Virus record (IMG/VR): IMGVR_UViG_3300021979_000003
Span: 96,001 to 160,000 of that record
Reading direction: 5' to 3' (one strand)
Length of the DNA stretch: 64,000 bases
DNA from: a virus
Lineage: Duplodnaviria; Caudoviricetes
The notes beneath the pieces are model-generated. The model ran no database searches. It was not told where the DNA came from and saw only the letters and a program-made list of their open reading frames with translations. A program made the position numbers and the translations under genes. This document shows positions 10,297 through 39,416 of this stretch, piece after piece (within the stretch, counting starts at the first letter, position 1; each line of letters begins with the position of its first letter).

Positions 10297-12522
10297 TTAG
10301 TTCAAGACTTTAAGGCTGTATCCATCACCTTGAACATTAACGGTAGCTTTACCACCACCTTTAAGCTCACCATAAACAATTTCTTTAGAAAGTGGCTTTT
10401 TGATTTTGTCTTTAATCTCACGCTTAAGTGGACGTGCACCCAAGGTCTGATCAAATCCATCTTCAATAAGCTTTTCTTTGGCTTTCTTAGAAAGCGTTAC
10501 AGTAACACCATTGGAAGCTAGCTGCTCATTAAGTAGCTTGATTTCTTTTTCAACAATAAGCTCCATACTTTCCAGAGTTAGATTATTGAATGAGCTTGTA
10601 GCACTTAGACGGTTTAGGAACTCTGGGGCAAAGAACTTCTTAATTGCGTCCAGATCAGCCATACTCTGTGCTTTGTTATTGAAACCAATACTTCCTGCAT
10701 TCTTTTCCTGTGCACCAAGGTTGGTGGTCATAAGAATGATCACATCCTTAAAGCTCACGGTTTTACCCTGTGACGATGTTAGTTTTGCATCATCCATTAC
10801 TTGTAGAAGTACAGTTAGCACTTTTGGATGTGCCTTTTCAACTTCGTCTAGAAGTAGAACACAGTTCGGATTGTCTGCGATATCATCAATCAGCTTAGCA
10901 GAGTTTTCATCATAACCGGCATAACCGGGAGGAGCACCAATCAACTTCGCAACTGAGTGTGATTCCTGATACTCAGACATATCGTATTTAATAAGTGGAA
11001 CAGCTAGGTTATTCGCAAGCTGTCGTGCAAGCTCAGTTTTACCCACACCAGACGTACCACTCATCAAGAACGAACCAACAGGTTTATTTTCCTCTTTCAA
11101 ACCAGACTTGGAAATCAAGATTTCTTCACAAATCAGATCAACAATATGATCCTGACCAAAAAGATTTTTCTTGATATTGGAGTCAAGATTCTTGAATACA
11201 TTGTCTTCTGTTTTCTGCATTGACTGTAGTGGTACGTTAGAAATCTTTGATACCGTCTTCTGGAACTCATCGATAGTCACAGTACTTACGTCATTGATTT
11301 TACAGTGTGCACCAGCAGCATCAAGTACATCAATAGCTTTATCTGGGAACGCACGTTGCTGGATATAACGCTGACATAGACCAAGCATATCTTCTAGGTC
11401 TTCTGGCTTGTAAGTTACGTTATGGAACTTCTCGTAAATTGGAACAAGCTTTTCCAAGATAGTAAGAGTGTCTTTGAATGAAGGCTCTTTAATAGTATAG
11501 TTCTGAAAACGACGAACCATTGCCTTGTCTTTTTCAAAGCTGGTTTTGTATTCTTCACCAGTGGTAGCCGCGATACACATTAGTTCACCACGAGCCAACA
11601 TTGGTTTCAGAATGTTACCAAGGTCAACACCGCCTTGTGTAGAAGCACCAGCACCCATTACAGTATGAGCTTCGTCAATAAAGACAATGCAATTACCTTG
11701 CTCAGCAAGATATTCGATAGACTTCTTAGCACGTTCTTCAAACTCACCACGATACTTAGTACCAGCAAGCATACCTGCTACATCAAGTACCATGACACGC
11801 TTGTCTGTTAGAGTTTCATGGCAATTACCTTGTTGGATAGCCAGTGCAATACCTTCCACCACCGCAGTTTTACCTACACCGGGGTTACCTAGAAGCATCG
11901 CATTGTTTTTCTTCTTACGTGCTAGAATTTCCGTGATTTCATGAATTTCAGTATCACGTCCAATGACTGGATCAAGACGACCTTCTTCAGCTTCGGTAGT
12001 AAGATCGGTAATGAAGTCACCTTCTTCAACAACTTCTTTGCCACTCTTTGTGCTTGCTTTTTTAAGAGCATCAAGGATTTTCTGACGTGCATCATGCACA
12101 GAATGGTCAAGAATTTCAGATGTGACATCAAGACTATCGTAGTGTTCCTCAATAAGAACTGCGAGAACATCTTCACAACGAGTATCTTGTGTGGTTCGAC
12201 CTTTAGACATAACATTCATGACCGCAGTTGAGATAGACTGCATAACAGTCTTTGAGATTACCAGTTCGTTTTCATTACGAACGGTTGCGCCGGGGGAATG
12301 CCTTTGAAGTTCGTTTTTAATAACTCGGGCTAGTGTCTCTGCGTTAATTTCTGCGTCACGGAAAACACTTACAATGTGTTCATTGGAAAGCAGTGAAACG
12401 AAGAGGTGATCTGCCGTAAGCGCGTCGTACTTTGTTTGAAGTGCCAGTTCGGAACTTTCGGTAATTACATTCGCGACCTCTGGCGGTACACGTGGATCAC
12501 GGCTTTGATTCTGATCACTCAT
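10297..12522 (-). CDS. clpA: ClpA-like Hsp100 ATPase
   Basis: Clp N-domain, Walker A GNPGVGKT and B FIDEAH, KYRGEFEER pore loop, second Walker A GTSGVGKT and B LLDEVEK, GAPPGYAG, IGF loop, GARPLKR; no M-domain. Confidence 0.93.
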   Translation of the reverse strand: MSDQNQSRDPRVPPEVANVITESSELALQTKYDALTADHLFVSLLSNEHIVSVFRDAEINAETLARVIKNELQRHSPGATVRNENELVISKTVMQSISTAVMNVMSKGRTTQDTRCEDVLAVLIEEHYDSLDVTSEILDHSVHDARQKILDALKKASTKSGKEVVEEGDFITDLTTEAEEGRLDPVIGRDTEIHEITEILARKKKNNAMLLGNPGVGKTAVVEGIALAIQQGNCHETLTDKRVMVLDVAGMLAGTKYRGEFEERAKKSIEYLAEQGNCIVFIDEAHTVMGAGASTQGGVDLGNILKPMLARGELMCIAATTGEEYKTSFEKDKAMVRRFQNYTIKEPSFKDTLTILEKLVPIYEKFHNVTYKPEDLEDMLGLCQRYIQQRAFPDKAIDVLDAAGAHCKINDVSTVTIDEFQKTVSKISNVPLQSMQKTEDNVFKNLDSNIKKNLFGQDHIVDLICEEILISKSGLKEENKPVGSFLMSGTSGVGKTELARQLANNLAVPLIKYDMSEYQESHSVAKLIGAPPGYAGYDENSAKLIDDIADNPNCVLLLDEVEKAHPKVLTVLLQVMDDAKLTSSQGKTVSFKDVIILMTTNLGAQEKNAGSIGFNNKAQSMADLDAIKKFFAPEFLNRLSATSSFNNLTLESMELIVEKEIKLLNEQLASNGVTVTLSKKAKEKLIEDGFDQTLGARPLKREIKDKIKKPLSKEIVYGELKGGGKATVNVQGDGYSLKVLN

Positions 12523-14412: not shown

Positions 14413-14477
14413 AGCAAATATCCTTGTTTATTGATATTTATAGGAGGATAAATATTACTACCACAGATGAGGTGACT

Positions 14478-16271
14478 ATGAAACCAAAAAAAGAAGAACT
14501 TGAAGTAAACACAAAATATATTCCAAAATTGAAGCCTGAAAATAAGGAACAGTCCAAAGCCTTAAGTAATCTTGAGTCGGATGTTCCTTATAATTTTCTA
14601 GTCGGACCCGCAGGAACTGGTAAGGCTCAGCCGCTAGATGCAAAAATAAAAGTACCCAATGGTTGGAAGCTAATGGGGGAGATTGAGGTAGGTGATACAG
14701 TATCTACACCTACTGGTGATAGTGCACCAGTTAGCGGTATATTTCCACAGGGAACTAAAGACATTTACCGTGTGACTTTTACAGACGGTCGTAGTACTGA
14801 ATGTTGCGAAGATCACTTATGGGAGGTTTACTATCCTGATAATTGGGGGCAAAAACCAAAAGTGCTTTCTTTAAAAGAAATTAAAGAAAAGTCTAAGACC
14901 TTGAGAAGAAAATTTCAAGTAAGATTGCCGCAACATGAAAAAAATACAGACACCAGTCTGCCCATCGACCCTTACGTGTTAGGCTGTCTCTTAGGAGACG
15001 GTGGTATGACAGTGACTGGAAGGATAGTAATAACTACAGCAGACGAATGTATTATTGATAAATTAAACGAATCAGTAGAAGGTATATTTAAGCATAAAAA
15101 TAATTCAGATTACGATTACATATACACGCATGGTGGGAAAGGTTCTGGTAATAGAAAGGGAACCTTTGGTTCAGAACTACGCCAAAACATTTATGAATTA
15201 GGATTATTTGGAAAAAAATCTCACGAAAAATTCATACCGGACCAATATCTTTATGACACTTCTAAGTCTCAAAAAATAAAACTATTACAAGGACTTCTTG
15301 ACACAGACGGATATGCAGCAAAGAAAAACAACTCATTATATTTCACGTCAACAAGCGAAGTGTTAAGCAAACAGGTGCAGTACTTAGTTAGGTCCATTGG
15401 CGGAACAGCAAAAATATCTTCTAGAACTAATTCTTATACTTACAAAGATCAAAGTAAAAAAGGAAGATTATCATTTACAGTCACCATTGACTATGCAGAA
15501 AAAACAAATCTTGTGTCCTTAGAAAGAAAAAAACTCTGTCTTAAAGATAATGGTCAATATATAAAAACTGGACGTATTGGAATTGACACAATAGAATACG
15601 TAGGAAAGAAAGAAGCTCAATGTATCATGATAGATTCGGAAGATCATTTATATATCACAGATGATTTTGTAGTTACCCATAATACCCTGTTTGCTACCGT
15701 GTATGCTATTAAAAAATATCTAGATGGTACATATAAAAAGATTGTTATCACTAGACCCGCCGTATCCGTTGATGAAGATCACGGTTTCCTCCCCGGTGAT
15801 CTTACGGCTAAGATGCACCCTTGGATGCTTCCAATCATAGATGTATTCATGGAGTTCTTTGATTCTGAAACACTAGAACATATGATCAGAGAAGGCGACC
15901 TCGAAATTGCACCGCTTGCCTATATGCGTGGACGTAACTTGGGCGCAATCATGATCGATGAAAACAGTGACAAACGTGGATTCATAATCATAGCAGATGA
16001 AATTCAAAACTCTACTCCTGAACAAATGAAGATGCTATTAACTAGACTAGGTAAAAACAGTAAAATGATTATTACTGGCGACTTATCTCAACATGATAGA
16101 GGTTTGGAATATAATGGACTTGGTGATGCTTACAACCGAATAAAGAAGCACGGCATCAATGAATCTTATATAACTATCGATACATTTAATAAAAAAGGTG
16201 TTGTTCGTAGTGAAGCTGTTAAAAACGTACTAAACTTATATCCAGAAGATGATTCTAAGGATGACAAATAA
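14478..16271 (+). CDS. phoH: PhoH-family ATPase interrupted by an intein
   Basis: GPAGTGK|T Walker A split by intein; RPAV, EIAPLAYMRGR, IIADEIQN, IITGDLSQHD motifs; SD gaggtg before ATG 14478. Confidence 0.93.
   Translation: MKPKKEELEVNTKYIPKLKPENKEQSKALSNLESDVPYNFLVGPAGTGKAQPLDAKIKVPNGWKLMGEIEVGDTVSTPTGDSAPVSGIFPQGTKDIYRVTFTDGRSTECCEDHLWEVYYPDNWGQKPKVLSLKEIKEKSKTLRRKFQVRLPQHEKNTDTSLPIDPYVLGCLLGDGGMTVTGRIVITTADECIIDKLNESVEGIFKHKNNSDYDYIYTHGGKGSGNRKGTFGSELRQNIYELGLFGKKSHEKFIPDQYLYDTSKSQKIKLLQGLLDTDGYAAKKNNSLYFTSTSEVLSKQVQYLVRSIGGTAKISSRTNSYTYKDQSKKGRLSFTVTIDYAEKTNLVSLERKKLCLKDNGQYIKTGRIGIDTIEYVGKKEAQCIMIDSEDHLYITDDFVVTHNTLFATVYAIKKYLDGTYKKIVITRPAVSVDEDHGFLPGDLTAKMHPWMLPIIDVFMEFFDSETLEHMIREGDLEIAPLAYMRGRNLGAIMIDENSDKRGFIIIADEIQNSTPEQMKMLLTRLGKNSKMIITGDLSQHDRGLEYNGLGDAYNRIKKHGINESYITIDTFNKKGVVRSEAVKNVLNLYPEDDSKDDK
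14625..15683 (+). mobile_element. Class 3 intein (353 aa) with LAGLIDADG homing endonuclease
   Basis: Starts with Ala (AQPLDAK), block B CCEDHLW, block F AQCIMID, block G VVTHN|T; LAGLIDADG motifs LGCLLGDG and LQGLLDTDG. Confidence 0.9.
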
Positions 16272-21183: not shown

Positions 21184-22644
21184 ATGTCAGAGAAAACCAA
21201 ACCAATTCAATACCTTAGCTCCCTTACAGGAAGCGGCAAATCAGAACACGTAATTGATAAGATAGCCAAAGATGATCAAAAATATATAATTGTTGCACCA
21301 AACCGTGAACTATGTGATGAACTCTACGCCCGATTAATCTATTCATTTAATACCAATATAGAGCCAGAAGTAGATGCATTAGTAGTTCACCAGAATACAA
21401 ATGACAAACCATCAAAACATTTGAAGAACATTATAGAGAATAATCCTACTGTTAGGATACTCATAACAACTCATGCAGCTTTTTTCTTAATGTTGAACAA
21501 ATCTATTGATGTATCTCAGTGGAATTTGATTCTAGATGAGGAAATGCCTATATTTGAAGAACATGAAATCAACGTAACTAAGTACACCAAATCTATCATA
21601 GAAGATACCTTGAGTTTTGAGAAAGCCCCTGATAGTGGCTTCTATAACGTCAGTTTTTTGACACCTATGTTTGGGTTAAATCATAATGCTGGTGTAGTGA
21701 GGGATTCTTTTTTAAGTAATAAAGCCTTCAGCAAACTATCCAAACATATCCTCGATGACAAGTATGATACTATGGTGTCAGAGGAAAGCCTTGAATACTT
21801 TGATAATGCCGAGTTAGATACGTCAGGTAAGAAGTTTACAAAATTTTATGCTATCTCTATATTGAGAATGGAGATACTATATAAGTTTAAATCTATATTG
21901 GTGCTTTGTTCTTTCTTTGAGAAAACAGTTACTTATAAACTTCTTAAGTGTCTGGGTTGTAAGCTAGAGCCATATTACTATTTGCCTGAAATGAGAGAAC
22001 ATGCTAATACTGAGAAGATCACCATTCATTATTTCTTTGATATGAATTGGAGTACAACGCTTCGAAAGACTAAGGTCAATAAGAAAAAGACGGTAGAAGA
22101 ACTAGTATATGAGAATATTAAAGCACTTATCGGTAATGAAAAGTTCTTATACAATGCTAATGTAAACTTTCGTCAATCGATCAAAGGTGGTACACTTGCT
22201 GCATCAACACACGGTATTAACAAGTATAAGACTTATACTGAATTAGTTTTCATGCCGAGTCTGAATGCCACTAGTGCCACGGTTAAGCTTTTGTCCAAGT
22301 TTGGTATGAAGCGTCAGGACATAGACTTTGCTAGAAACGTTCTAACTGCTTATCAGTTCGCCTCTAGGGGAGCTATACGCGACGTTAATAACACCAAGGA
22401 TGTGAACCTGTATGTAATGGATAAGCGTACTGCGATGTTCCTGAAGAGCGTATTCACCAAGGCTAAAGTACAGCATCATTCTATGGATGATATTGTTAAG
22501 AACAAAGGAACAACAAAGAAGGTTCCAAATAAGGTTAAAAGTTTTATGTCTAGGGTTAGAAAACGATTAAACGATGGTGAGAACGTTCGAGGGAATACCT
22601 TAGATAAGTATAGAGAATACTATGAGGAATATTACAATGGCTGA
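21184..22644 (+). CDS. SF2 helicase-like protein (possible origin-binding/replication initiator)
   Basis: Walker A SLTGSGKS, IIVAPNREL, LITTH, Walker B LILDEE, motif VI-like YQFASRGAIR, basic C-terminal tail. Confidence 0.7.
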   Translation: MSEKTKPIQYLSSLTGSGKSEHVIDKIAKDDQKYIIVAPNRELCDELYARLIYSFNTNIEPEVDALVVHQNTNDKPSKHLKNIIENNPTVRILITTHAAFFLMLNKSIDVSQWNLILDEEMPIFEEHEINVTKYTKSIIEDTLSFEKAPDSGFYNVSFLTPMFGLNHNAGVVRDSFLSNKAFSKLSKHILDDKYDTMVSEESLEYFDNAELDTSGKKFTKFYAISILRMEILYKFKSILVLCSFFEKTVTYKLLKCLGCKLEPYYYLPEMREHANTEKITIHYFFDMNWSTTLRKTKVNKKKTVEELVYENIKALIGNEKFLYNANVNFRQSIKGGTLAASTHGINKYKTYTELVFMPSLNATSATVKLLSKFGMKRQDIDFARNVLTAYQFASRGAIRDVNNTKDVNLYVMDKRTAMFLKSVFTKAKVQHHSMDDIVKNKGTTKKVPNKVKSFMSRVRKRLNDGENVRGNTLDKYREYYEEYYNG

Positions 22645-23695
22645 TTTAACCAATATAAAATCTGCGTGGAAAACACCTACTGGATTGACTGTAACAACCT
22701 ATTCACCTACTGATATAGTGGAATTGCAGAAAGTTATTAATATGCTATTGAGTGTTAAGCAGCAAGAATACATTACCGAAATAACATTTTCCAATTGGAA
22801 CGATCCTGCTGTCAGTAAGATAGGAGTAATGATGATAACCCCTGCTATCTTCTTGTCTATAGATGATTACATGATTTTATGTGAGCATTTCAAAGATGAT
22901 AAATCACAGCACAATCATATTGATATATGTGGTAAAGACAAGTTGTACATAGATTCTAATTTCAAAACAGAATCATTTAATACTTTCTTAGAAGTTGTTC
23001 CAAAAGTAAAAGATTTGAAAGCACAATCATTAACGGACGTAAATAAATTGTTGACTGACATGCTTGCTATGAAGCCATTAACTGAAAGTTATCGTTATAC
23101 ATTTCATGAATTAGGTGGAGAATACTTAGTACATAATTCAGAATCCAGTATAAAGAATTGTATGTTTGTAATGTTATCTAAGGTATTCTCTTATTATAAC
23201 CCTCTTATCACTAACATGGAATTTCTAAAGGCTGGTGATAGAAACCTTACTTACTTTCTTTCTAATAACACTTTCATGACCAATAAGTTTGGGAAGAACC
23301 ACTATGATGACAGCACCTACGGTATGTACGCAACACTTTATTCTTCGTTTGTGGAGTATTACCGTAGGATAGCAAGGAATTTAACAGAAACCGATAGGGT
23401 AATGATTATAGACCATTATAGCCGATATGTGGTTTTCAACGAATCATTCATGAACCTTCATAAGGATTCTTGTTGTTATGTGGTTGAATATAATGATAAA
23501 AGATTTTTAGTCATTGAATCCAAAGAACAAATTAAAAATATAAAAAGCCAAGCCAATGACGTTTCTTTATCATTGTCAGATGGTATGTATGTATTGTTTG
23601 AAAAGCATCTAGATAAACTTTATAAGTTAAGTCTTTTGAGGTCTGGATGTGGTGGCTACGATGAAGTGAAGCTAAAAGATGTCCCTTTAAAATAG
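22637..23695 (+). CDS. Hypothetical protein
   Basis: ORF overlapping the helicase-like stop; SD gagga before ATG 22637. Confidence 0.65.
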   Translation: MADLTNIKSAWKTPTGLTVTTYSPTDIVELQKVINMLLSVKQQEYITEITFSNWNDPAVSKIGVMMITPAIFLSIDDYMILCEHFKDDKSQHNHIDICGKDKLYIDSNFKTESFNTFLEVVPKVKDLKAQSLTDVNKLLTDMLAMKPLTESYRYTFHELGGEYLVHNSESSIKNCMFVMLSKVFSYYNPLITNMEFLKAGDRNLTYFLSNNTFMTNKFGKNHYDDSTYGMYATLYSSFVEYYRRIARNLTETDRVMIIDHYSRYVVFNESFMNLHKDSCCYVVEYNDKRFLVIESKEQIKNIKSQANDVSLSLSDGMYVLFEKHLDKLYKLSLLRSGCGGYDEVKLKDVPLK

Positions 23696-23908
23696 GGACA
23701 TCTTACTTAGTTTAGACATAAGTTCAATCTTTTCTTGCACGGTTTCATCTAACATTTCTAATTGATCAAACGACATAGACCATGCTTCTTCATAAGTTAC
23801 ACCACCACCGCTGTAAACCACGGCGGTTATTATTTTCTTGGTGTATGATTTTTCAATGTCACTATATCTATTCAACATTTCGATAACGTGTTTAGGCTCC
23901 GCTATCAA
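23687..23908 (-). CDS. gp51-like / tail-chaperone 'T' segment, probably expressed as a -1 frameshift extension of 23905..24792
   Basis: Only a TTG start with no SD; GGVTYEEAWSMS motif; in the -1 frame of the upstream slippery site. Confidence 0.6.
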   Translation of the reverse strand: MIAEPKHVIEMLNRYSDIEKSYTKKIITAVVYSGGGVTYEEAWSMSFDQLEMLDETVQEKIELMSKLSKMSLF

Positions 23909-23926
23909 GAGCCAGTTCCGAAAAAA
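23895..23926 (-). other. Candidate programmed -1 frameshift signal
   Basis: T TTT TTC heptamer (23926-23920), 6-nt spacer, GGCTC/GAGCC stem-loop. Confidence 0.65.
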
Positions 23927-24792
23927 TCAGTCGGATTCGTATCAAACGGCTGATCCCATTCATGTCCGCATTCAACACATTTTATTTTTTCTTCACTACG
24001 TACACCATGCTTGTTTATTTCAATTAGTTTATCTCTAATGGCTTCAAACGACTTGTTATCCAATTGCTTAAGCCATTCATAGATTTCATCACGGTCTGTT
24101 TCTACTTCGCCATCTTCAGTAACAATTCTTTGAATACAGTTAGCATATACGTCCATGGTACTCATAGTAAGGTCTTTGAATATCTCATGAATAGATGATA
24201 GAAATTTTACCTCATCTTCCTCTTCAATTTCCTTTTCAGATAGCATCTGATTTAGGTTTTGACGAATCTGTGTGATTTTCTTTTGCTCTTCAAATGCATG
24301 TGCATCTAGAGTCAATGCATCTTGGAAAGATGATGGTCTTAAGTATACTGTCAGACCATCAAGGTTTTCATGATTTATTTTATATTCTTTTTCATGAGGC
24401 TGAACCTCGGATAGTAAATTTTTCAAATTTCTGGAATATGTTTGTTCATGTTCACACTTTGGACAAGTAAGCTCAATTTCTTGTTCCTCACCCTGACTTG
24501 CTAATTTAATGGCTACTAGAAGAACATCTACGTCGGATTTAATCATTTTCTTAACATCTACGTCTGATAGTGTTGTTGAGTCTTTGATTAAGTTTTCTAT
24601 AGCAGTGCCATTTAGTAGTGCTTCTGGATTTTTAAGCATAAGGTCGTTCATCGTAGTCATTGGTAGAACACCAACTTCATTATTACTACTGATATCATTT
24701 GATGATATAAAACCGTCTTCATAAAAGTTGAAACCTGACGGTAGTTCTATATACAACTTGGGTTTTCTATAATATTTTTTAAGAGCAGACAT
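23905..24792 (-). CDS. gp26: T4 gp26-like baseplate hub assembly / tail assembly chaperone
   Basis: KPKLYIELPS, LPMTTxxDLMLKNPEALLNG, CPKC and CVEC Zn-type motifs, ends DFFGTGS. Confidence 0.75.
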   Translation of the reverse strand: MSALKKYYRKPKLYIELPSGFNFYEDGFISSNDISSNNEVGVLPMTTMNDLMLKNPEALLNGTAIENLIKDSTTLSDVDVKKMIKSDVDVLLVAIKLASQGEEQEIELTCPKCEHEQTYSRNLKNLLSEVQPHEKEYKINHENLDGLTVYLRPSSFQDALTLDAHAFEEQKKITQIRQNLNQMLSEKEIEEEDEVKFLSSIHEIFKDLTMSTMDVYANCIQRIVTEDGEVETDRDEIYEWLKQLDNKSFEAIRDKLIEINKHGVRSEEKIKCVECGHEWDQPFDTNPTDFFGTGS

Positions 24793-24869
24793 ATAATCTC
24801 ACCTATCCTCTATAATGTTTGATAAATAATTGTAGTATATTATTTATGGAAGTATAATTTGGGGTTTCT

Positions 24870-27806
24870 ATGAGCGAAGAAATGATTCTCAGCGGTGCGT
24901 TTTTTGATAACAATATGCCTAAATGGGCAACTGAGGAAACAATGAAACGCATTGGTAATGATTTGAAAAAAGACAATACGCAAACACGAAAGCAGCATGA
25001 TAAGATGATTTTGCTTTTGGGTAAGATTGTTCAAAATTCAACCAAGGAAGAAAAGACTCAAAGGGAAACCCTAAAAGAAATAAAGAATATAGCTAAGGAA
25101 ATAAAGGATTCGAACAAAACCAACAAAGAGCTTGTTAAAGAAGTTAAGAAAAGTAACAAGCTAGCTGACGAAGCCAATAAACAAGCTAAGAAAACCTCTA
25201 CTACCAACCAGAAGGGCGAGAGTATTGACACTTCTGAAATGGAAAGTCATCTATTAGATGTAAATCGTACCTTGGAAAAAATTCATCTAATGATGTCGCA
25301 GTCTAATAGTGCTATGATCAAGACCATGGAAGAACGTAATCAAATGGTGGGGCGATCAAATTTATCTAGAAATGCCAAGAAATCATCTGAATCTGAAGTT
25401 ATTAGGGATAGTTCTAGTGGTATAGACGCAATGCTTCACGACACATTAGAAGAACTACAGAGTAAAAGTGGAAGACGAAACTCAGGTAGACAACGTATTA
25501 CAAACGAAATTTCTGGATCAAAAGGACCAATTGGAAGGTTTAATGGTCGTATTGCCTCTATGCTTGGTGCTATTGGGGTGTTTGTTAAAAGAATAAAACA
25601 GTTTGGTTCAATGATACTTGACGTAATTAAGAAAATTCCATTTATTGGTACGAAGATTGCTGCTGCTATTGCTGCTGTAAGTACAGTATCTGACTTCATA
25701 GACACCATCCAAAGTTCATTGAGTGATTATAAGAGCATGATTGATCGTGGTATATCTTTTGCTAGAGCCAACGTCGAAGGCATCCGTATGGATGGCATCA
25801 TGGTTCGAAAAATGATCGGTGAGGCTGGACTTACATTAGAAGCTGGTACAGAAGCAATGAAAGAAAACATTGCCATAATTAATGAGCTTGGTGTAAAAGA
25901 CTATATGACAACTATAAAGGATGTCATGGGTAATGCTCAGAATTCCGCTTCGTTCATCAATAGAATAATGATGTCCCAAAATGATATTGCTGAATTTTCA
26001 CGCGACTATCTTAAAAGCTTAAAAATGCTTGGGGATTACGAAAGATTGAATAGTCGTGAGCGAGTGCAGGGAATCCAAAGATTTGCTAAGCATAGTCGTA
26101 TGTTCGCTCAAATGACAGGCGAATCAATTAAAGACTTGCGTGAAATAATCACTGACATGGCTTCTGATCCAAGTATAGCAACTTATCTTAGTGGTATTAC
26201 AGATCAGAATCAGAGGGGAGAAACCCAATCTTCTTTACAGCTTATAACCGCTACTTTTGGTAAAGGTTCGCCTATGCAAAAAGCGTTCATGGAAGCTATT
26301 ACTGATGTGACTGGTGCTGGATTTGCTTCTACCGATGCTTATCGCGAACTTATGATTTTATCTCAGAACATGCCAAATCAGGGTGAGTTATTGAATCAGT
26401 TACAATCTCTATCGCAAAATATTGATAGTCAAACAGCGGAAGAAACTGCAAATCAGTTGGGTAGCATAGCCGATATTCTTAGGGAAGGAATGAATGGTAT
26501 GGATGCTGATTCACGTGAAAATTTACAAATTTTGATGAGAAACAATACAAACCTAGAAGCTATCTTTGGTGGTCTGTTACAAATGCAAACCAAGTTTGCT
26601 GATAGAGAAGCTAGACAAGAAATATTAAGACAGGGCGGTATGGTTGATGAAAAGAGTACCGAAACCGTAATGCTTAACCAGCAAATGAAAACAACTGCTG
26701 AACAATCTCAGGCTGCTGTACAAGCTATGATAGCAAATGCTGCTGATAGTGATGCTTCTAGATATGCAATGGAAGCTGGTTATCGTGTAATGATTGAAGC
26801 CAACAACCTTACTGAAAAAGGTGCCCAAGCAGCGGTTACATCAGCACACGCAATGGTTGATTATCTACCAAAAATAAGCAACTACATCTATGATATCCTT
26901 GGTATTATGGATGATGATAGAAAGACCAGAAAAGAGCAAGCTGAAGAAGCTATGAATTCTAGAGATTTAGGCGCAGGAGCTAGTGCACAAAGACAGGCAC
27001 TGTTGGGTATGTTGGGAGAAAATGGATTAACTACTGGCAACTTAGACGCTAGAATTAGTACTGGTAGAGGTTCTATGCCCACAGTAGAACGAAAGTATGA
27101 TGAAAATATGGCTAGGTTTGAAAAATATGGCATGAATGCGGAGGCTTTAATGACTCAAGCACAAAGTTCCAACAGCCATGTAGCAAGCTTAGCAAGAGAC
27201 ATGCTAATGTATATGGGTTCTGAACAGATGTCTGGTGTTATATCACGTAGTGACCGTTCAGAATATCGTGATATGCTTGAACAGTTAATGGATAAAATGC
27301 CTGATGAACAGCGCGATCAATATTACGATCAGATGAATCAAAAAATGAGGTCAGGTGTTGCTGCAAGGCTTTTCCAAGCTATGTTTAAACAGAACTTTGA
27401 GAGAGTAGAAGGAAGAAACTTAACATCACAAGTAGAAGATGCACAAAGTAGTGAAGTAGAGTCTGCTAGTTCAAATGCAGCTAGTGATGCTGCACGTCAA
27501 GCTGAAGAAGCAGAAAATCAAAGACAAGCACAACGTACACAAACTCCAACGCAGAATGAATCTGGACAAGATGTCACATTTAATGAAAATGGAATACCCA
27601 ACACTATTGCTAGACAAAACGCTACCGTTGACAATCAACAGAATGGTGTTAACTTAATGGGTATTCTAAATGATAATTTGAATCTAATGAATTCGAAGCT
27701 TGATGATCTTATTGGTATAACCAAAATTAGTAGTGAAGAATCACAAAACATATTCAGAGATATAAAAATTAATACTGGTAGGAACGGCGGATCAATAAGC
27801 TCATAA
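24870..27806 (+). CDS. Tape-measure-like protein
   Basis: 978 aa, helical/coiled-coil, hydrophobic segment (IASMLGAIGVFV..IAAAIAAV), adjacent to gp26-like gene and portal. Confidence 0.6.
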   Translation: MSEEMILSGAFFDNNMPKWATEETMKRIGNDLKKDNTQTRKQHDKMILLLGKIVQNSTKEEKTQRETLKEIKNIAKEIKDSNKTNKELVKEVKKSNKLADEANKQAKKTSTTNQKGESIDTSEMESHLLDVNRTLEKIHLMMSQSNSAMIKTMEERNQMVGRSNLSRNAKKSSESEVIRDSSSGIDAMLHDTLEELQSKSGRRNSGRQRITNEISGSKGPIGRFNGRIASMLGAIGVFVKRIKQFGSMILDVIKKIPFIGTKIAAAIAAVSTVSDFIDTIQSSLSDYKSMIDRGISFARANVEGIRMDGIMVRKMIGEAGLTLEAGTEAMKENIAIINELGVKDYMTTIKDVMGNAQNSASFINRIMMSQNDIAEFSRDYLKSLKMLGDYERLNSRERVQGIQRFAKHSRMFAQMTGESIKDLREIITDMASDPSIATYLSGITDQNQRGETQSSLQLITATFGKGSPMQKAFMEAITDVTGAGFASTDAYRELMILSQNMPNQGELLNQLQSLSQNIDSQTAEETANQLGSIADILREGMNGMDADSRENLQILMRNNTNLEAIFGGLLQMQTKFADREARQEILRQGGMVDEKSTETVMLNQQMKTTAEQSQAAVQAMIANAADSDASRYAMEAGYRVMIEANNLTEKGAQAAVTSAHAMVDYLPKISNYIYDILGIMDDDRKTRKEQAEEAMNSRDLGAGASAQRQALLGMLGENGLTTGNLDARISTGRGSMPTVERKYDENMARFEKYGMNAEALMTQAQSSNSHVASLARDMLMYMGSEQMSGVISRSDRSEYRDMLEQLMDKMPDEQRDQYYDQMNQKMRSGVAARLFQAMFKQNFERVEGRNLTSQVEDAQSSEVESASSNAASDAARQAEEAENQRQAQRTQTPTQNESGQDVTFNENGIPNTIARQNATVDNQQNGVNLMGILNDNLNLMNSKLDDLIGITKISSEESQNIFRDIKINTGRNGGSISS

Positions 27807-27845: not shown

Positions 27846-30146
27846 ATGGGTTGGAAAAGTAGATACAACACAATTAAAATAAAGCCTAGACCACAAGAAG
27901 GGACTCAAGGTAGTTCCTCTACGACTAGTATAAACAATAATAAATCTTGGCTACCACAGTTTTACCAAGGCTCTTATGATCGTATCGCTCGTTATATGCA
28001 GTATGATCATATGGATTATGACGTTGATATTAACTTGGCACTCGATACTATAGCCGAATTCTGTACTCTTAATAGTGAATACGATGATATGCCGTTTGAG
28101 TTACAGGTTTCAGATGAAATTTCAAGTTCAGATGTAGTAGTTCTTCGCGAACTTCTAAAACGTTGGGTTCGTATTAATGAGTTTTCTTCACGCCTTTTTG
28201 ATATTTTTCGTAATGTAATTAAGTATGGTGATCAAATAATGATTCGCGACCCTGAAAGCTTTAAATTGTATTGGGTTGATATTTACAATGTTGCGAAAGT
28301 GCTAGTAAATGAAGAAGAAGGTAAAGAACCTGAGTATTATTTTATAAAGAATCTATCTTTCAATCTTACTGATTTGATTGCAACTGACGACTCTAAACTT
28401 CTTATGAATATTCCCCTAGCTGGTGGTGTTAGAGCAAGCCGTATGACAAGCTCTCAGAGCTTCACAGGCTTCGGCAACGAATCTTACACAAACAACTACG
28501 GTTCTGACAATGACGTTGATAGAGAGTATCCGGTAGCCTCTAGTCATGTAGTTCATATTACTAAGTCAACTGGCATGGACAATCTTTGGCCGTTTGGCCG
28601 AAGTGTACTTGATTCAGTATTCAAGCCTTTTAAACAGAAAGAACTACTTGAAGATGCAATCATTATCTATCGTGTGCAGCGTTCCCCAGAACGTTTGATG
28701 TTCAAGATTGATACTGGTGGTATGTCACCAAAACGTGCTAACGAATACGTAAACACTATTGCTGATACTTTTAGACAAAAGCGCCAGCCTGTTGTTGATT
28801 ACAACAAGGGCGAGACAATTATGGATACCACATATAATCCAATGTCTATCACTGAGGATTTCTTCTTTGCTCAAGGCCCTGACGGTCGAGGCTCTAGTGT
28901 AGAAGTACTTCCCGGTGGTGAGTGTTTAGCTCTAGAAACTGAAGTGCGTTTGATTGATGGTACAACTGATACTCTAAAGAATCTTATAAAAAGATATGAA
29001 GACGGTGAAATGTTAATGACCTACACCGTAGATAAAGTTACCGGAGTTGTGTGTCCTGCGATGATCACATGGGCAGGCGTGACAAGACAGAATGCTGATG
29101 TTATCAAACTACATTTTAGTGATGGCGAAAGTGTTATATGTACTCCTGATCACGAATTCCCTGTTAAGGGTAAGGGTTATGTTCAAGCACAAGACATCGA
29201 AGACGGTGATGAATTCTTTGTTCTTCATGAACGTTTTGAAGATAACAAACTTCAGTACTATGTTGATAGAACACAAGAATGGTCCTCAACCGAAGAAATG
29301 TTTAATGACTTCTTTGATGAATTTGGTAAACCATACCGATTCAAAGACTATTATACTGATCAATTAGACCGTGAAGGTGATGTAATTGAGTACAAAACAC
29401 TAGAACGTAAAGAATCTATTGGCACTATGGATACTGGTACTTTAACCATCGACGGTGCTGAAAGGTTTACTGATAATCATACATTCCCAATTGGTAACGG
29501 TATTTTCACTAAAAACTCAACAGGTAGTATTGAAGACTTGAAGTTCTTCACTTCAAGAATGATTCGTGGTCTACGTGTCCCAATTGCATATATGTCTTAC
29601 CTAACAGAAGACGGTCAGACTTATCAATATAATGATGGTAAGACTGGTACTGCTTATATGGAAGAGTTTAAATTCTCCAAGTATTGTGAGCGATTACAGA
29701 AGCAGGTTATTCGAACATTGAACCGTGAGTTCAAGCTTTTTGTTAAAAATCAGGAAGTAGATATTAGTTCCGGTGATTTTGATATTAAGTTTGTTGAGCC
29801 ACAGAGCTTTAGTGAGTATCGTCAGATCGAACTTGATACTGCACAAATGGCTGTATTCCAGAGTGTTGCTGATGTGCCTTATATGTCTAAGCGTTTTGTT
29901 ATGAAGAGGTTCATGGGTCTAAGCGATGCCGAGATTAAAGAGAATGAGAATCTATGGATGGAAGAAAAAGGATTCGATGTTACTCTTTCTAAAGCAAATG
30001 CGTCTGAAGGTGACATTAACGTTCCAAATGAAGAAGATATTGATGAATTGGAACAGGAAGAGCTTACAGCCGATGAGGAACAGGAGAACTCAGAAGACTT
30101 GGATATTGATATGGACTTTGGTGATGAAGGGGGTAATGAGGAATGA
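27846..30146 (+). CDS. gp20: Portal protein (T4 gp20-like) with mini-intein
   Basis: IIIYRVQRSPERLMFKIDTG, EDFFFAQGPDGRGSSVEVLPGG, IEDLKFF..RGLRVP, EEFKFSKYCERLQ. Confidence 0.92.
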   Translation: MGWKSRYNTIKIKPRPQEGTQGSSSTTSINNNKSWLPQFYQGSYDRIARYMQYDHMDYDVDINLALDTIAEFCTLNSEYDDMPFELQVSDEISSSDVVVLRELLKRWVRINEFSSRLFDIFRNVIKYGDQIMIRDPESFKLYWVDIYNVAKVLVNEEEGKEPEYYFIKNLSFNLTDLIATDDSKLLMNIPLAGGVRASRMTSSQSFTGFGNESYTNNYGSDNDVDREYPVASSHVVHITKSTGMDNLWPFGRSVLDSVFKPFKQKELLEDAIIIYRVQRSPERLMFKIDTGGMSPKRANEYVNTIADTFRQKRQPVVDYNKGETIMDTTYNPMSITEDFFFAQGPDGRGSSVEVLPGGECLALETEVRLIDGTTDTLKNLIKRYEDGEMLMTYTVDKVTGVVCPAMITWAGVTRQNADVIKLHFSDGESVICTPDHEFPVKGKGYVQAQDIEDGDEFFVLHERFEDNKLQYYVDRTQEWSSTEEMFNDFFDEFGKPYRFKDYYTDQLDREGDVIEYKTLERKESIGTMDTGTLTIDGAERFTDNHTFPIGNGIFTKNSTGSIEDLKFFTSRMIRGLRVPIAYMSYLTEDGQTYQYNDGKTGTAYMEEFKFSKYCERLQKQVIRTLNREFKLFVKNQEVDISSGDFDIKFVEPQSFSEYRQIELDTAQMAVFQSVADVPYMSKRFVMKRFMGLSDAEIKENENLWMEEKGFDVTLSKANASEGDINVPNEEDIDELEQEELTADEEQENSEDLDIDMDFGDEGGNEE
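28923..29516 (+). mobile_element. Mini-intein (198 aa) in portal
   Basis: E|CLALET start, CTPDH block B, TGTLTIDG block F, GIFTKN|S end; no endonuclease motifs. Confidence 0.88.
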
Positions 30147-35315: not shown

Positions 35316-38300
35316 ATGGCAAAGCGACTATATTTTAAAGACTATTATTATTTACAAGGCAATAACGTACACATTCATGGTGTAGGCGGTTTTAAAGTAC
35401 CTACTGGTGACACTAACCAACGTCCTACCGTAATGGAAGGCATTGTGCGTTATAATACTGAAACCAATTCATGGGAGTTAGGTACTCATGATGACATGGT
35501 TATTTTTAATACTAACAATGATGGATCGAGTACTTTCTACACTAAACAAGGTGGTACTTTGTTTGGTGACATCATCATGGATGATGGTAGAAAAATACAG
35601 AATGCCGATGGTTCTTATATTCGTCCAAGCTATGGATTTGCTAATGATCTAGACACTGGTCTTTTTAGAAGTGCAGAAAACACAATTGATGTTGTGGTTG
35701 GTGGTGAGCTAAATTCAAACTCAGTCCCTGCTATTCGTGTTTCACGTAACGGCTCTTCTACTGGTGACTTTGATCAAGTCGTTGAAATAAATGCAGACCT
35801 TGTGATTAATGGTACTGTTACTAATGTGAACAGTGTTGATCTTGAGGTAGAAGATAATACTATAACTTTAAACAAGAATGGTACAAATGCTGGTCGCTCT
35901 GGTATAGAGATAGAAGCAAACGGTAGTATTGCTTCAAGGTTCTACTATGACTTCAGTAAGTCTAAGTGGTCAACTAACAACATTTCTATAACAGATATAC
36001 CTCTCCCGGTAATGGGTACTGACGTTACAAATAAAAACTATGTCGATGTGGAAATTCAAACCCTAGATGATGATCTATCTGCTGTTATTGCACAGAATTA
36101 TCAAACACTTGATCAAAAGATTGATAATGAAATCAACCGTGCAACTACCCGAGAAAATACAATAGAATCTAATCTTAATGCTGAGATTACACGTGCTACT
36201 GGTGAAGAACAGCGCATAGAAGACAAGTTCGACAATGCGGTAACCAACCTTAATAATACAGATGCTAGCTTACAACAGCAAATAAACAATGAAGTAACAC
36301 GTGCTACTGGTGAAGAACAGCGCATAGAAAATAAATTTGATACTGCTGTTACTAATCTTAATAACACTGATGCTGACTTACAACAACAGATAACTGATGA
36401 AGTATCACGAGCAACAACACGTGAAGATGATTTGCAACAACAAATCACTGATGAAGTTAACCGTGCAACTACTCGTGAGAATAATATCGATACAGCACTT
36501 ACTAATGAGATTACACGTGCTACAAACGAAGAGCAGCGAATCGAAACCAAGTTTGATAACGCTATCTCTAGTTCACAAAGTACTGATGCTGACTTACAGC
36601 AACAGATCACTGACGAAGTAACACGTGCTACTGGTGAAGAACAGCGCATAGAAAATAAATTTGATACTTCTGTTACCAATCTTAATAACACTGATGCTGA
36701 CTTACAACAACAGATAACTGATGAAGTATCACGAGCAACAACACGTGAAGATGATTTGCAAACACAAATTGATGGAAAGGAAGATACTTTAGGATTTACC
36801 CCTGAAGATTCGGCTAATAAAAGTCAGCCTAACGGTTATGCAAGCCTAGACTCTAATGGTAAAGTACCAACTTCTGAACTACCCAACTCAGTGTTTGGTG
36901 GTATTGTATATCAAGGAGGTTGGGATGCAATCAACAATACTCCAACGTTACAGTCTGGTGTAGGTACTCGTGGTAATTACTATAAAGTTAATAATGCAAG
37001 TACTAACACGACCTTAAACACTGAACTCGATGGTGTTACTGATTGGGCAGAAGGCGATCTATTGCTATTCAATGGTACAGCTTGGGAAAAGTTTGATCAG
37101 ACAGATAAAGTAACCAGCGTAAGAGGCACGAACAATACAATACCTAAAGTTGGTGATGTAGTTCTTAGCCTACAGGATTTAGGAGCTTCGGCGTATGGAG
37201 CCGATCTTGCAACTGCAACTGATGCCCCAGATGGAAGATCGAAATTAGGTCTGGGAACGGCATCTACGTTGAATACAGGTACGTTAGAAGGCCAGATACC
37301 AGTTAGAGTTGTAAACGGTGACCTTACAGGCAATCTTTTAGGTAATGCTAATACAGCTTCTGAGCTACAAACAGCTAGAACTTTCAACTTCTTAGGTGAT
37401 GCTACAGGGTCTGCATCATTCAAAGGCGACAGTAATATTGACATCACATTAACTGTCCAAGACGACAGCCACAACCATATTATTTCTAATGTGGATGGAC
37501 TACAATCTGTATTGGATGGATTGCAGAACTCTATCGATGGGAAACTAGATGATACTGCAACTGCTACTAACTCTGATTTGCTAGACAATATAAGTTCAGA
37601 GCAATTTTTAAGAAGTGATGTATCTGATCTATTTACTTATACAAATCTAGGATTAGGAACTGGATTGATTCTTGAAGCTAATAGTGATGTGAATGTTACA
37701 CACAGCGGCTTAGTCATGAAAGCTGGTACTAATCCAACTGCCGGTGATAGATTACTTACGGTTAAGTCTGCTGGCGAATCACCACGTTTGATTGTTGAAC
37801 ATGACGGTGCTGTTAAAACTTCTAACAGTGATATGTACGTCGGTGTTGATGTTGCTGGCACAGGCGGAAATCGTGTGTTTCATGAAGGTTTCCACCCAAA
37901 TGCTGATGCATTAACTAATAGTGTGTCATTGAGTCTGAGTGGTGACGTTTCTGGAACTGCAACAACTGATTGGTCTGGTAATGTAGATATTGCTGTTGAA
38001 GTAGTTAATGATTCACATACCCATGAATGGTCTAACATAACAAGTAAGCCAGTAGGTTCTACCGGTGAAGTATATTACTTTGCTAATGACGGAAGTGCGG
38101 TAGAATCATCAATGATTTTACAACAATTGAGAATTGTTGATAACGCGCAAAGACTTTCAGAAGAGCAACAAATTGTCGTTTCGTTTGAGGATGTATTTAA
38201 TACATGGTATAGATTCTCTCATGGTGCATCAGAAACATATCCATCTGATGGAACCGAGACAAACGCTTGGAGTTATCAAAGTGCTACTGATACAGTCGAG

Positions 38301-39416
38301 TGTACTATAAACTCAGCGACCCATGTCGGCTTTGTAAGTGAAGAAAAGTATAGTACTTATATTCACGAAGCAACTCTTACTTCTGCTGGTGCAGACAATG
38401 ATATGTTAGGTGTTGTGATAGCATTTGATTTTGATGAAAATGACTTGGTTACTAACAATGCATATAATGATGATCCAAGTAATTATAGTTGGGATATTAA
38501 TACAACAGATGCTTTAATACCTAACGAACATACACTTACATTAATACGTACTAGAAGCACTGAGGCTCATTTAAACGTTAATAGCACACCAGTACAATAC
38601 GCTGTAGTTTATAACTATAACAAGCCCGACGAAAAAGTTATTGCAAATGGTGATGCTTTAATCAATGATACGGTTGGAAACTTTTCAGGAGTAGAAGCTA
38701 AAGTACGTGTTGAAAGAAACGGCGATATCATAAACGTGTGGACAACTGAGTGGTCAGACTCAACTAGTTATGATGGTACTCTTAAAGGTAACATGACTAT
38801 TGACTTAACTTCTGATCCAGACTTAGAGAAGTTCCGTGGTGATAAATCGTATGGTTATTCAGCGCTATCACAACCAAGCGCTACGTACAAAGATATCTTA
38901 TTCACTGATCCCTCTGGTAGAATTTATGATGTAAGTACTGATACCTCATGGTATTATGATGGTACACAATGGATTCAGGACAGTAATACTAACGTTCAAA
39001 GTGAGATTGGTGTAGGAAGACTTATACAAAATCCAACTGATAAGAATATATATTTCGTTAAAAGTCAAGATGAAGTTGTTAAGATATATGATTATGATGA
39101 TCCTAATAATTACTACACTAAAACTGAAGTTGGAAATTTATTAGAATCGTTGAAATGGAACACAGAAGTTACACTTAGTGGTGGTGGAACACAGGTGTTT
39201 GATCTTAATACCATATTTGGAACTAACCTTGGGGATTCTAGAGACGTAATAGTTGATATCAAAGTTCTAGATAATACTTCAGGAAGCCCAACAAATGGAA
39301 TGTGGATAGATGCAAGTGCGGTAGCAACATATGGAATTAATACGACTAATGAAACCGTAACTATTATCAACGAATATACCAACAGTTTGACATTTTACAT
39401 TAGGATATCTCTATAA
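35316..39416 (+). CDS. Long tail-fibre-type protein with coiled-coil repeats and lectin-like C-terminal domain
   Basis: PTGDTNQRP..RYNT, PSYGFANDLDTG, 18-aa repeats, DDSHxH motifs, TSP_C-like domain. Confidence 0.75.
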   Translation: MAKRLYFKDYYYLQGNNVHIHGVGGFKVPTGDTNQRPTVMEGIVRYNTETNSWELGTHDDMVIFNTNNDGSSTFYTKQGGTLFGDIIMDDGRKIQNADGSYIRPSYGFANDLDTGLFRSAENTIDVVVGGELNSNSVPAIRVSRNGSSTGDFDQVVEINADLVINGTVTNVNSVDLEVEDNTITLNKNGTNAGRSGIEIEANGSIASRFYYDFSKSKWSTNNISITDIPLPVMGTDVTNKNYVDVEIQTLDDDLSAVIAQNYQTLDQKIDNEINRATTRENTIESNLNAEITRATGEEQRIEDKFDNAVTNLNNTDASLQQQINNEVTRATGEEQRIENKFDTAVTNLNNTDADLQQQITDEVSRATTREDDLQQQITDEVNRATTRENNIDTALTNEITRATNEEQRIETKFDNAISSSQSTDADLQQQITDEVTRATGEEQRIENKFDTSVTNLNNTDADLQQQITDEVSRATTREDDLQTQIDGKEDTLGFTPEDSANKSQPNGYASLDSNGKVPTSELPNSVFGGIVYQGGWDAINNTPTLQSGVGTRGNYYKVNNASTNTTLNTELDGVTDWAEGDLLLFNGTAWEKFDQTDKVTSVRGTNNTIPKVGDVVLSLQDLGASAYGADLATATDAPDGRSKLGLGTASTLNTGTLEGQIPVRVVNGDLTGNLLGNANTASELQTARTFNFLGDATGSASFKGDSNIDITLTVQDDSHNHIISNVDGLQSVLDGLQNSIDGKLDDTATATNSDLLDNISSEQFLRSDVSDLFTYTNLGLGTGLILEANSDVNVTHSGLVMKAGTNPTAGDRLLTVKSAGESPRLIVEHDGAVKTSNSDMYVGVDVAGTGGNRVFHEGFHPNADALTNSVSLSLSGDVSGTATTDWSGNVDIAVEVVNDSHTHEWSNITSKPVGSTGEVYYFANDGSAVESSMILQQLRIVDNAQRLSEEQQIVVSFEDVFNTWYRFSHGASETYPSDGTETNAWSYQSATDTVECTINSATHVGFVSEEKYSTYIHEATLTSAGADNDMLGVVIAFDFDENDLVTNNAYNDDPSNYSWDINTTDALIPNEHTLTLIRTRSTEAHLNVNSTPVQYAVVYNYNKPDEKVIANGDALINDTVGNFSGVEAKVRVERNGDIINVWTTEWSDSTSYDGTLKGNMTIDLTSDPDLEKFRGDKSYGYSALSQPSATYKDILFTDPSGRIYDVSTDTSWYYDGTQWIQDSNTNVQSEIGVGRLIQNPTDKNIYFVKSQDEVVKIYDYDDPNNYYTKTEVGNLLESLKWNTEVTLSGGGTQVFDLNTIFGTNLGDSRDVIVDIKVLDNTSGSPTNGMWIDASAVATYGINTTNETVTIINEYTNSLTFYIRISL
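36129..36776 (+). repeat. Twelve 54-bp coding repeat units (18-aa coiled coil)
   Basis: E(I/V)xRAT.. and AVTNLNNTDA.LQQQI units; near-identical 147-bp duplication at 36291 and 36615. Confidence 0.9.

Follow-up and report, generated by a model that had tools for sequence, protein, structure and literature searches.

The stretch of viral DNA considered here, called the window below, comprises 64,000 nucleotides (nt) of the IMG/VR record IMGVR_UViG_3300021979_000003 (positions 96,001 to 160,000 of that record). The source record as a whole is 239 kb long and is judged ~54% complete; its sole GenBank relative at the DNA level is the 440-kb Salicola phage SCTP-2. On the minus strand of the window, at 23905-24792, lies a hub-assembly gene resembling gene 26 of phage T4, which we refer to as the gp26-like gene. 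Read in its own frame (the 0 frame), it gives a product of 295 amino acids (aa) ending in ...PTDFFGTGS*. This open reading frame (ORF) is a member of the PF12322 T4_baseplate family, with 76.5 bits against a gathering cut-off of 24.5, the match spanning residues 54-291 and profile positions 36-218 of 219, and it also matches the baseplate hub family phrog_150 (7e-28). The protein carries two CxxC motifs (CPKC at about residue 110 and CVEC at 272-275) and a DFF at 289-291; Cys 272, Cys 275, Phe 290, and Phe 291 are invariant or nearly so in our alignments (A1 and A4). Here, we report that a programmed -1 frameshift at a T TTT TTC heptamer close to the 3' end of this gene very probably yields two proteins, of 295 and 368 aa (a probability of roughly 0.87 in our estimate), a reading built on sequence comparison.

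The minus-strand 3' end of the gp26-like ORF reads ...CCG ACT GAT TTT TTC GGA ACT GGC TCT TGA. The slippery heptamer T TTT TTC occupies 23926-23920 and stands in X XXY YYZ phase with the 0 frame, with TTT in the ribosomal P site and TTC in the A site. A 6-nt spacer (GGAACT, 23914-23919) leads from the heptamer to the first of two helices described below, and the 0-frame TGA stop (23905-23907), four codons past the heptamer, overlaps a TTG at 23908-23906. In the -1 frame, a TGA lies immediately 5' of the heptamer and is followed by 79 stop-free codons. From the heptamer to a TAA at 23689-23687 (23687-23926, minus strand), this frame encodes FF and 77 new residues; it begins FF-RNWLLIAEPKHVIEML... 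and, in a longer reading, FF-RNWLLIAEPKHVIEMLNRY... The predicted products are 295 aa for the short form and 291 + 77 = 368 aa for the long form, and the predicted trans-frame junction peptide in the window is ...DFFRNWLLIAEPK, or ...TNPTDFFRNWLLIAEPK in a second rendering. An earlier reading of this DNA (the original prediction) had placed the heptamer in this phase near the 3' end of the gp26-like gene, a GGCTC/GAGCC pairing 6 nt beyond it, a stop-free -1 frame into a downstream 73-aa ORF with products of 295 and 368 aa, and a TTG at 23908 that overlaps the TGA and has no Shine-Dalgarno (SD) sequence. All of these we found as described.

We then compared related loci from the GenBank jumbo phages 121Q, RaK2, PA5oct, Atu_ph07, Phosso, Paride, and Kaldavass, plus SCTP-2, together with 80 IMG/VR loci at 28-76% protein identity and 13 metagenome-assembled close relatives; in IMG/VR alone, ~600 loci matched. 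In 86/86 scorable loci, the 0 and -1 frames overlap briefly, the overlap contains an in-phase X XXY YYZ heptamer, and a -1 ORF of 74-106 codons follows; these loci include SCTP-2, 121Q, RaK2, PA5oct, Atu_ph07, Phosso, Kaldavass, and 78/80 of the IMG/VR loci. Because every scorable locus carries the in-phase heptamer in such an overlap, we consider the signal to be more than chance, and conservation in homologues, which the original prediction had proposed as a check, speaks in its favor. The heptamer is T TTT TTC in 69 of the 86 loci, A AAT TTT in 14, and T TTT TTT in three. SCTP-2 has the identical GAT TTT TTC, and its -1 frame reads FFRKWLLIAEPEEI. The A AAT TTT subgroup has its site one codon further upstream, where the 0 frame ends NFS* and the slipped product would still be NFF-IRSL, indicating that what is conserved is a working slip site and a fused protein rather than one particular string of bases. 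The 0-frame tail past the site is variable, from one to six codons, and reaches a stop in every case.

The codons at the site appear frozen. All 62 unique T TTT TTC genes read NNT TTT TTC, their synonymous sites fixed, against a background elsewhere in the same genes in which 73% of the Phe codons are TTT. The last C of the heptamer opens a conserved Arg/His/Gln codon in the -1 frame, and conservation of the -1 peptide begins at the codon right behind the slip, with an FFR..LL pattern (alignment A2, 59 extensions). In the segment between the 0-frame stop and the first ATG, the position entropy is 0.39, 0.16, and 0.85 for -1 codon positions 1, 2, and 3, respectively; since the variation there follows the -1 codon positions, the -1 frame is under coding constraint upstream of any ATG. 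The gp26-like gene is preceded (24793-24869, minus strand) by a ribosome-binding site (RBS), GGTGAG, 6 nt before its ATG, and by CATAAATA, which resembles a T4 late promoter and may function as one; the extension, unlike the gp26-like gene, has neither an RBS of its own nor a CATAAATA-type motif.

The AlphaFold2 (AF2) model of the extension is a compact helical domain with a predicted local distance difference test (pLDDT) score of 91. The downstream ORF taken alone matched no family in the Pfam and PHROG scans, and its model matched only small uncharacterised ORFs in BFVD, the best with an expectation (E) value of 1.9e-3. A BFVD match of the extension to a "tape measure chaperone" (E 0.3) was too weak and was not used. 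In one marine subgroup (L042:2322-2612, L057:2322-2630, L044:2322-2579), the extension is prolonged by 10-25 residues, an acidic tail rich in Trp, and totals 84-101 aa.

Downstream of the spacer, two helices can be drawn in the window. Helix S1 (23895-23913, minus strand) pairs GGCTC (23913-23909) with GAGCC (23899-23895), and helix S2 (23880-23908, minus strand) pairs TTGATAGCG (23908-23900) with CGTTATCGA (23888-23880) over 9 base pairs (bp). The 5' arm of S2 sits inside the loop of S1, and we propose the two helices together as a candidate H-type pseudoknot. The canonical arrangement places a stable hairpin or pseudoknot after a spacer of ~5-9 nt, and the site in the window agrees with this, having a 6-nt spacer, 5 bp in S1, and 9 bp in S2. 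S2 is the ViennaRNA minimum-energy fold (-9.4 kcal/mol). Both helices were scored against slid partners in an alignment of 15 clade sequences (A5). S1 has 98.7% of its cells paired and is nearly invariant, and this near-invariance leaves it with no covariation among the 15 sequences, a result that is uninformative either way. S2 has 86.7% of cells paired versus 31-44% with slid partners, and three of its pairs show compensatory double changes. Overall, the two-helix model has 91% of cells paired versus 31-44% when slid, and its covariation score lies above all 500 shuffles. The downstream helices vary between lineages, and the two-helix model is specific to the clade of the window. Across the family, folding is more stable in the 50 nt that follow the heptamer than in control segments taken from the same loci, with a mean z, i.e., fold stability relative to shuffles, of -1.75 versus -0.31 (69 unique loci, Mann-Whitney p = 3e-12).

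A separate line of evidence comes from phages that encode the long form without a slip. The A2 profile had 767 matches at E<=1e-3 among 1.84 billion representative proteins; the best 150 of these include 22 in-frame fusions of 319-351 aa, all with the extension at the extreme C-terminus and with PF12322 as the N-part. Single-ORF long forms are also present in seven IMG/VR loci (L102-L107, L150), with the junction ...LDLDxxxxFRxKLI. Such proteins in other uncultured jumbo phages (P0078, P0088, P0093, and others) have the same N-domain and the same extension as the predicted 368-aa product, joined at the same point, and they match the extension profile at E down to ~3e-20; they differ in having no slip site and a single F at the junction, and in that their short form comes from a second gene. 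In all five searched records that encode the long form in frame, it is accompanied by a neighbouring second PF12322 gene that lacks the extension, while 5/5 frameshift-type genomes (91-100% complete), and also the window's own record, contain exactly one PF12322 gene. A single gene where there is a slip site, and two where there is none, is the pattern expected if the short and the long form are both needed. A related-locus search with the single protein P0093 as query returned no loci.

Three other explanations of the same arrangement were considered. The downstream ORF could be a gene of its own, started independently and giving a free protein of 62-73 aa without any fusion, by termination-reinitiation at TTG 23908 on the TTGA overlap or from ATG 23878. 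The overlap of TTG and TGA is present in the window, the ATG at codon 15 of the extension is kept in 14/15 members of the window's close clade, and gene callers and GenBank annotators do call ORFs of 60-73 aa at this place in several relatives. However, the TTG is not conserved, being replaced by CTG, TTA, CTA, or TCG in the nearest relatives of the window, so that independent initiation there, which the original prediction had named as grounds for abandoning its claim, finds little support, and neither the TTG nor the ATG has an SD sequence before it. Of 69 unique extensions, six, PA5oct among them, have no ATG anywhere; the first ATG lies past codon 15 in 49 and past codon 30 in 34, and an SD-like motif ahead of it is seen in five. 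Moreover, the peptide is conserved from the codon that starts at the last base of the heptamer and the -1 periodicity begins upstream of the ATG, and a separate gene would leave unexplained both the frozen NNT TTT TTC and the in-frame fusions at exactly this junction. We consider two separate genes very unlikely.

In the second explanation, transcriptional slippage, the RNA polymerase would stutter on the T6 (U6) run and add one U, and the same long protein would be made by normal translation, an outcome that sequence comparison by itself does not tell from that of ribosomal slippage. The site is indeed a homopolymer run, extended by the final T that the codon before it always has. Still, six identical bases make a short run for polymerase slippage to be efficient; the known cases in bacteria and phages involve ~8-9 or more. 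The 14 loci with A AAT TTT have a run of only five T, and yet their X XXY YYZ stands in the correct phase, and the downstream structure, at the canonical 6-nt spacing and enriched family-wide, fits slippage by the ribosome instead. We regard transcriptional slippage as very unlikely. The third possibility, that the break in frame comes from a sequencing error in the homopolymer or from recent decay of the gene and that the true gene is one 368-aa ORF, draws on the in-frame long forms in other phages and on the error-prone nature of homopolymer runs. Against it, isolate genomes have this arrangement of frames as well, and so do dozens of assemblies obtained independently from different samples and sequencing platforms; the 0-frame tails are short and stop-terminated in every case, and the genomes with an in-frame long form have an extra short paralogue which the genome of the window lacks. 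An artefact or decayed gene we judge extremely improbable. Programmed -1 ribosomal frameshifting that fuses the two ORFs, as the original prediction proposed, is strongly supported by the comparative evidence.

Several points weigh against this frameshift reading and should be kept in mind. The loci share ancestry, so that counts of the 86/86 type do not represent independent events. The support is comparative: that slippage occurs, and at what rate, we infer from the sequences, and the same applies to the shifting of T TTT TTC in this particular host. As for the structure, S1 shows no variation and the residues encoded by the two helix arms (WLL/RLL and EP) are conserved, so coding constraint may be behind part of the structural signal, and the two-helix model was derived from the very sequences that were used to test it. 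The conserved codon-15 ATG in the window's close clade means that a separate 62-aa product may be made there in addition. Finally, the functional reading given below leans on the annotation of T4 gp26 and gp51 as hub-assembly chaperones (PMC3004832).

The relation to T4 is best seen by setting its two proteins beside the two predicted products. T4 gp26 (208 aa) resembles the short form: it is a PF12322 protein that stops just past the conserved FF, ending in ...EFFELL*. T4 gp51 (249 aa) resembles the long form: it consists of PF12322 over residues 1-201 and a C-terminal extension of 48 aa which starts at the equivalent point, ...DVF-KLLVNPDEI... In T4, however, the two are encoded by divergently transcribed genes with no frameshift, and the gp51 extension is shorter by ~28 residues. 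The original prediction had called the downstream ORF a gp51-like gene. This holds in part, as the ORF moderately resembles the C-terminal extension of gp51 (an hhalign probability of 70%), but it is not a full gp51-like gene; the label is imprecise because T4 gp51 is a full PF12322 paralogue of gp26 that carries the 48-aa extension in addition. In the underlying hhalign comparison, 91 T4-like gp51 extensions aligned with the A2 profile at a probability of 69.8% and E 4.1e-5 over 28 columns, and the phrog_150 alignment enters the gp51-type tail (position 270 of 282) in 2/8 natural long forms; with HMMER, the profile hidden Markov model (HMM) of the extension gave T4 gp51 only 5.4 bits, which is non-significant. 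A similar division applies to the suggestion that the C-terminal FF of this family encodes a conserved slippery site. An in-phase slippery heptamer stands at this place in 86/86 scorable loci, but in T4 gp26 the FF is encoded by TTC TTT, gene 25 follows directly, and there is no slip site or frameshift. Conservation of the FF as a purely nucleotide-level slip signal is ruled out by T4, which keeps the FF without a slippery sequence. The literature counts both T4 gp26 and gp51 among the hub assembly chaperones and states that the particle lacks gp51 (PMC3004832). As a side observation, the T4-like gp51 homologues P0211-P0302 carry a precomputed Pfam match to PF28602 alongside PF12322, and PF28602 may be a model of the gp51 C-terminal extension.

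In a tree of the N-domains, T4 gp26 and gp51 form a group of their own (support 100/99), separate from all jumbo-phage genes; the jumbo-phage in-frame long forms make up one clade (96/81) nested among the frameshift genes, and the short paralogues are nested among the frameshift genes at two places, all with a midpoint root and a long gp26 branch. This topology suggests separate duplications in T4 and in the jumbo phages. The gp26/gp51 pair of T4 is therefore probably a separate duplication and not an orthologue of the two predicted products of the window. That the frameshift is the older state among the jumbo phages we offer as a lead rather than as a result. A wider version is possible, in which a frameshifting single gene is the older state in these phages and gave rise to the two-gene arrangement on two or more separate occasions, one in the T4 lineage (genes 51 and 26) and at least one in the jumbo phages, but we hold it tentatively and incline somewhat to doubt it. 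One short paralogue, the neighbour of an in-frame long form (L183, G001:C1:99070-102810), groups with the frameshift-type gene PRF_L068 (99/84) and not with the other short paralogues, a hint that jumbo phages may have arrived at two genes more than once.

Nearly all long-tailed phages are regarded as using programmed -1 frameshifting in the genes of their tail assembly chaperones, the T4-type phages being the exception. Such a frameshift in lambda G/GT, P2 E/E+E', and Mu, conserved and giving a fixed product ratio, was reportedly described by Xu, Hendrix, and Duda in 2004. The slip site of P2 is T TTT TTG, which is very near to T TTT TTC. The window shares with lambda gpG/gpGT a heptamer near the 3' end of a morphogenetic gene, predicted to give a short and a C-terminally extended form, and a gene that adjoins a long tape-measure gene, here a candidate only. 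It differs from lambda in that the protein, which contains two CxxC zinc-ribbon motifs, is roughly double gpG in size, and in that the lambda order of tube, chaperone, and tape measure is absent: the gp26-like gene is divergent from the 978-aa gene next to it, and there is no adjacent tube or sheath gene. The original prediction had drawn a parallel with chaperones of the G/GT type, which our searches did not extend to homology: the chaperone HMM matches stayed below threshold and no solved chaperone fold was matched. For the gp26-like protein, PF16459 Phage_TAC_13 gave E 0.055 and 14.3 bits, below the cut-off of 28.8, and the tail-chaperone family phrog_344 gave E 0.0024, also below threshold. 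The AF2 model of the short form (pLDDT 86) matched solely viral baseplate hub (assembly) proteins in BFVD and nothing in the PDB at E<=1e-3 (Foldseek), and a wide structural search retrieved only generic helical hairpins (Z up to 8.4) and no solved chaperone fold. A role of the G/GT type, in which the shared domain would act on the tape measure or hub and the extension would serve as an adaptor, is thus drawn by analogy; the two-form logic and the T4 literature support it, and no homology was found.

The gene next door, at 24870-27806 on the plus strand and divergent from the gp26-like gene, encodes the 978-aa protein, a candidate tape measure or virion structural protein without a Pfam or PHROG family. 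It has a weak BLASTP match (1e-5) to the syntenic ORF088 of RaK2, which is annotated as tape-measure-like and whose counterparts are a "structural protein" in 121Q and, by mass spectrometry, a virion protein in PA5oct; against T4 gp29, BLASTP showed no similarity. The original prediction was therefore right about the position of the gp26-like gene next to this gene, while the tape-measure identity stays at the level of a candidate. Past the 978-aa gene come a T4-type portal, a prohead protease, and a major head gene, and on the other flank of the gp26-like gene and its extension lies a convergent 357-aa gene. Between the convergent genes, at 23676-23704, there is an 11-bp hairpin with the stop codon of the extension in its loop. 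It is common to the 3' ends of the extension and of the convergent 357-aa ORF (22622-23695), both stops lying in or at the hairpin, and it looks like a terminator.

Some other genes in the window deserve a brief mention. The portal gene (27846-30146, plus strand, 766 aa) matches PF07230 (2.7e-91) in two stretches, with an insert at about residues 371-541 which has a Cys at its start and a sub-threshold match to the intein-splicing family PF14890 (22.9 bits versus a cut-off of 35.8); the gene may contain an intein. A single ORF of 3787 aa (42424-53787, plus strand) has no Pfam family at E<=1e-3 and comes after two large virion- or fibre-like genes (35316-39416 and 39416-42361). On the minus strand, 10297-12522 encodes a Lon-like ATP-dependent protease (phrog_4871, 2.4e-243). 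A 615-aa protein encoded at 14424-16271 (plus strand) has N-terminal matches to terminase-large-subunit, primase, and helicase-loader ATPase families and a C-terminal PhoH-like domain (phrog_170, 2.8e-60).

Taking the locus together, we propose the following working model. A single PF12322 gene of an SCTP-2-like jumbo phage would be decoded in two ways. Most ribosomes would read GAT TTT TTC GGA ACT GGC TCT TGA codon by codon and release the 295-aa short form. Some would pause at the RNA structure that begins 6 nt past the heptamer (S1 plus S2, TTGATAGCG/CGTTATCGA, possibly an H-type pseudoknot), and the tRNA-Phe in the P site and that in the A site would then slip one base back on T TTT TTC. 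Reading on in the -1 frame (RNWLLIAEPKHVIEML...) would add 77 codons and give the 368-aa form with its small helical C-terminal domain. By analogy with T4 gp26/gp51 and lambda G/GT, both forms might act jointly as non-virion chaperones of central-hub or tape-measure assembly; the N-domain common to both would hold the client, and a second partner would be brought in by the extension.

The finding has a direct consequence for annotation. The original prediction held that the frameshift is not part of the usual annotation of this family, and none of the nine GenBank records examined joins the two ORFs or annotates slippage. Several omit the extension altogether; it is unannotated in the RaK2, PA5oct, and Paride records, and gene callers missed it in several assemblies. 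A full-text literature search, with most subscription journals outside its reach, found no paper on this frameshift. The carriers of the signal include well-studied isolates, RaK2, 121Q, PA5oct, and Atu_ph07.

For the biology of these phages, the finding would place a frameshift with the logic of G/GT in the hub-assembly family of T4-related jumbo phages, a group that is large and found around the globe, and it would provide a natural case of a frameshift replaced by gene duplication. It also offers a testable explanation for the need of T4 for both gp26 and gp51. If the derivation of two genes from an older frameshifting gene, in the T4 lineage as well as in the jumbo phages, is true, then T4 gp26 and gp51, a pair that has long been puzzling, would be a two-form chaperone of fixed ratio like lambda G/GT, working on the complex of hub and tape measure, and the C-terminal extension would be its adaptor domain.

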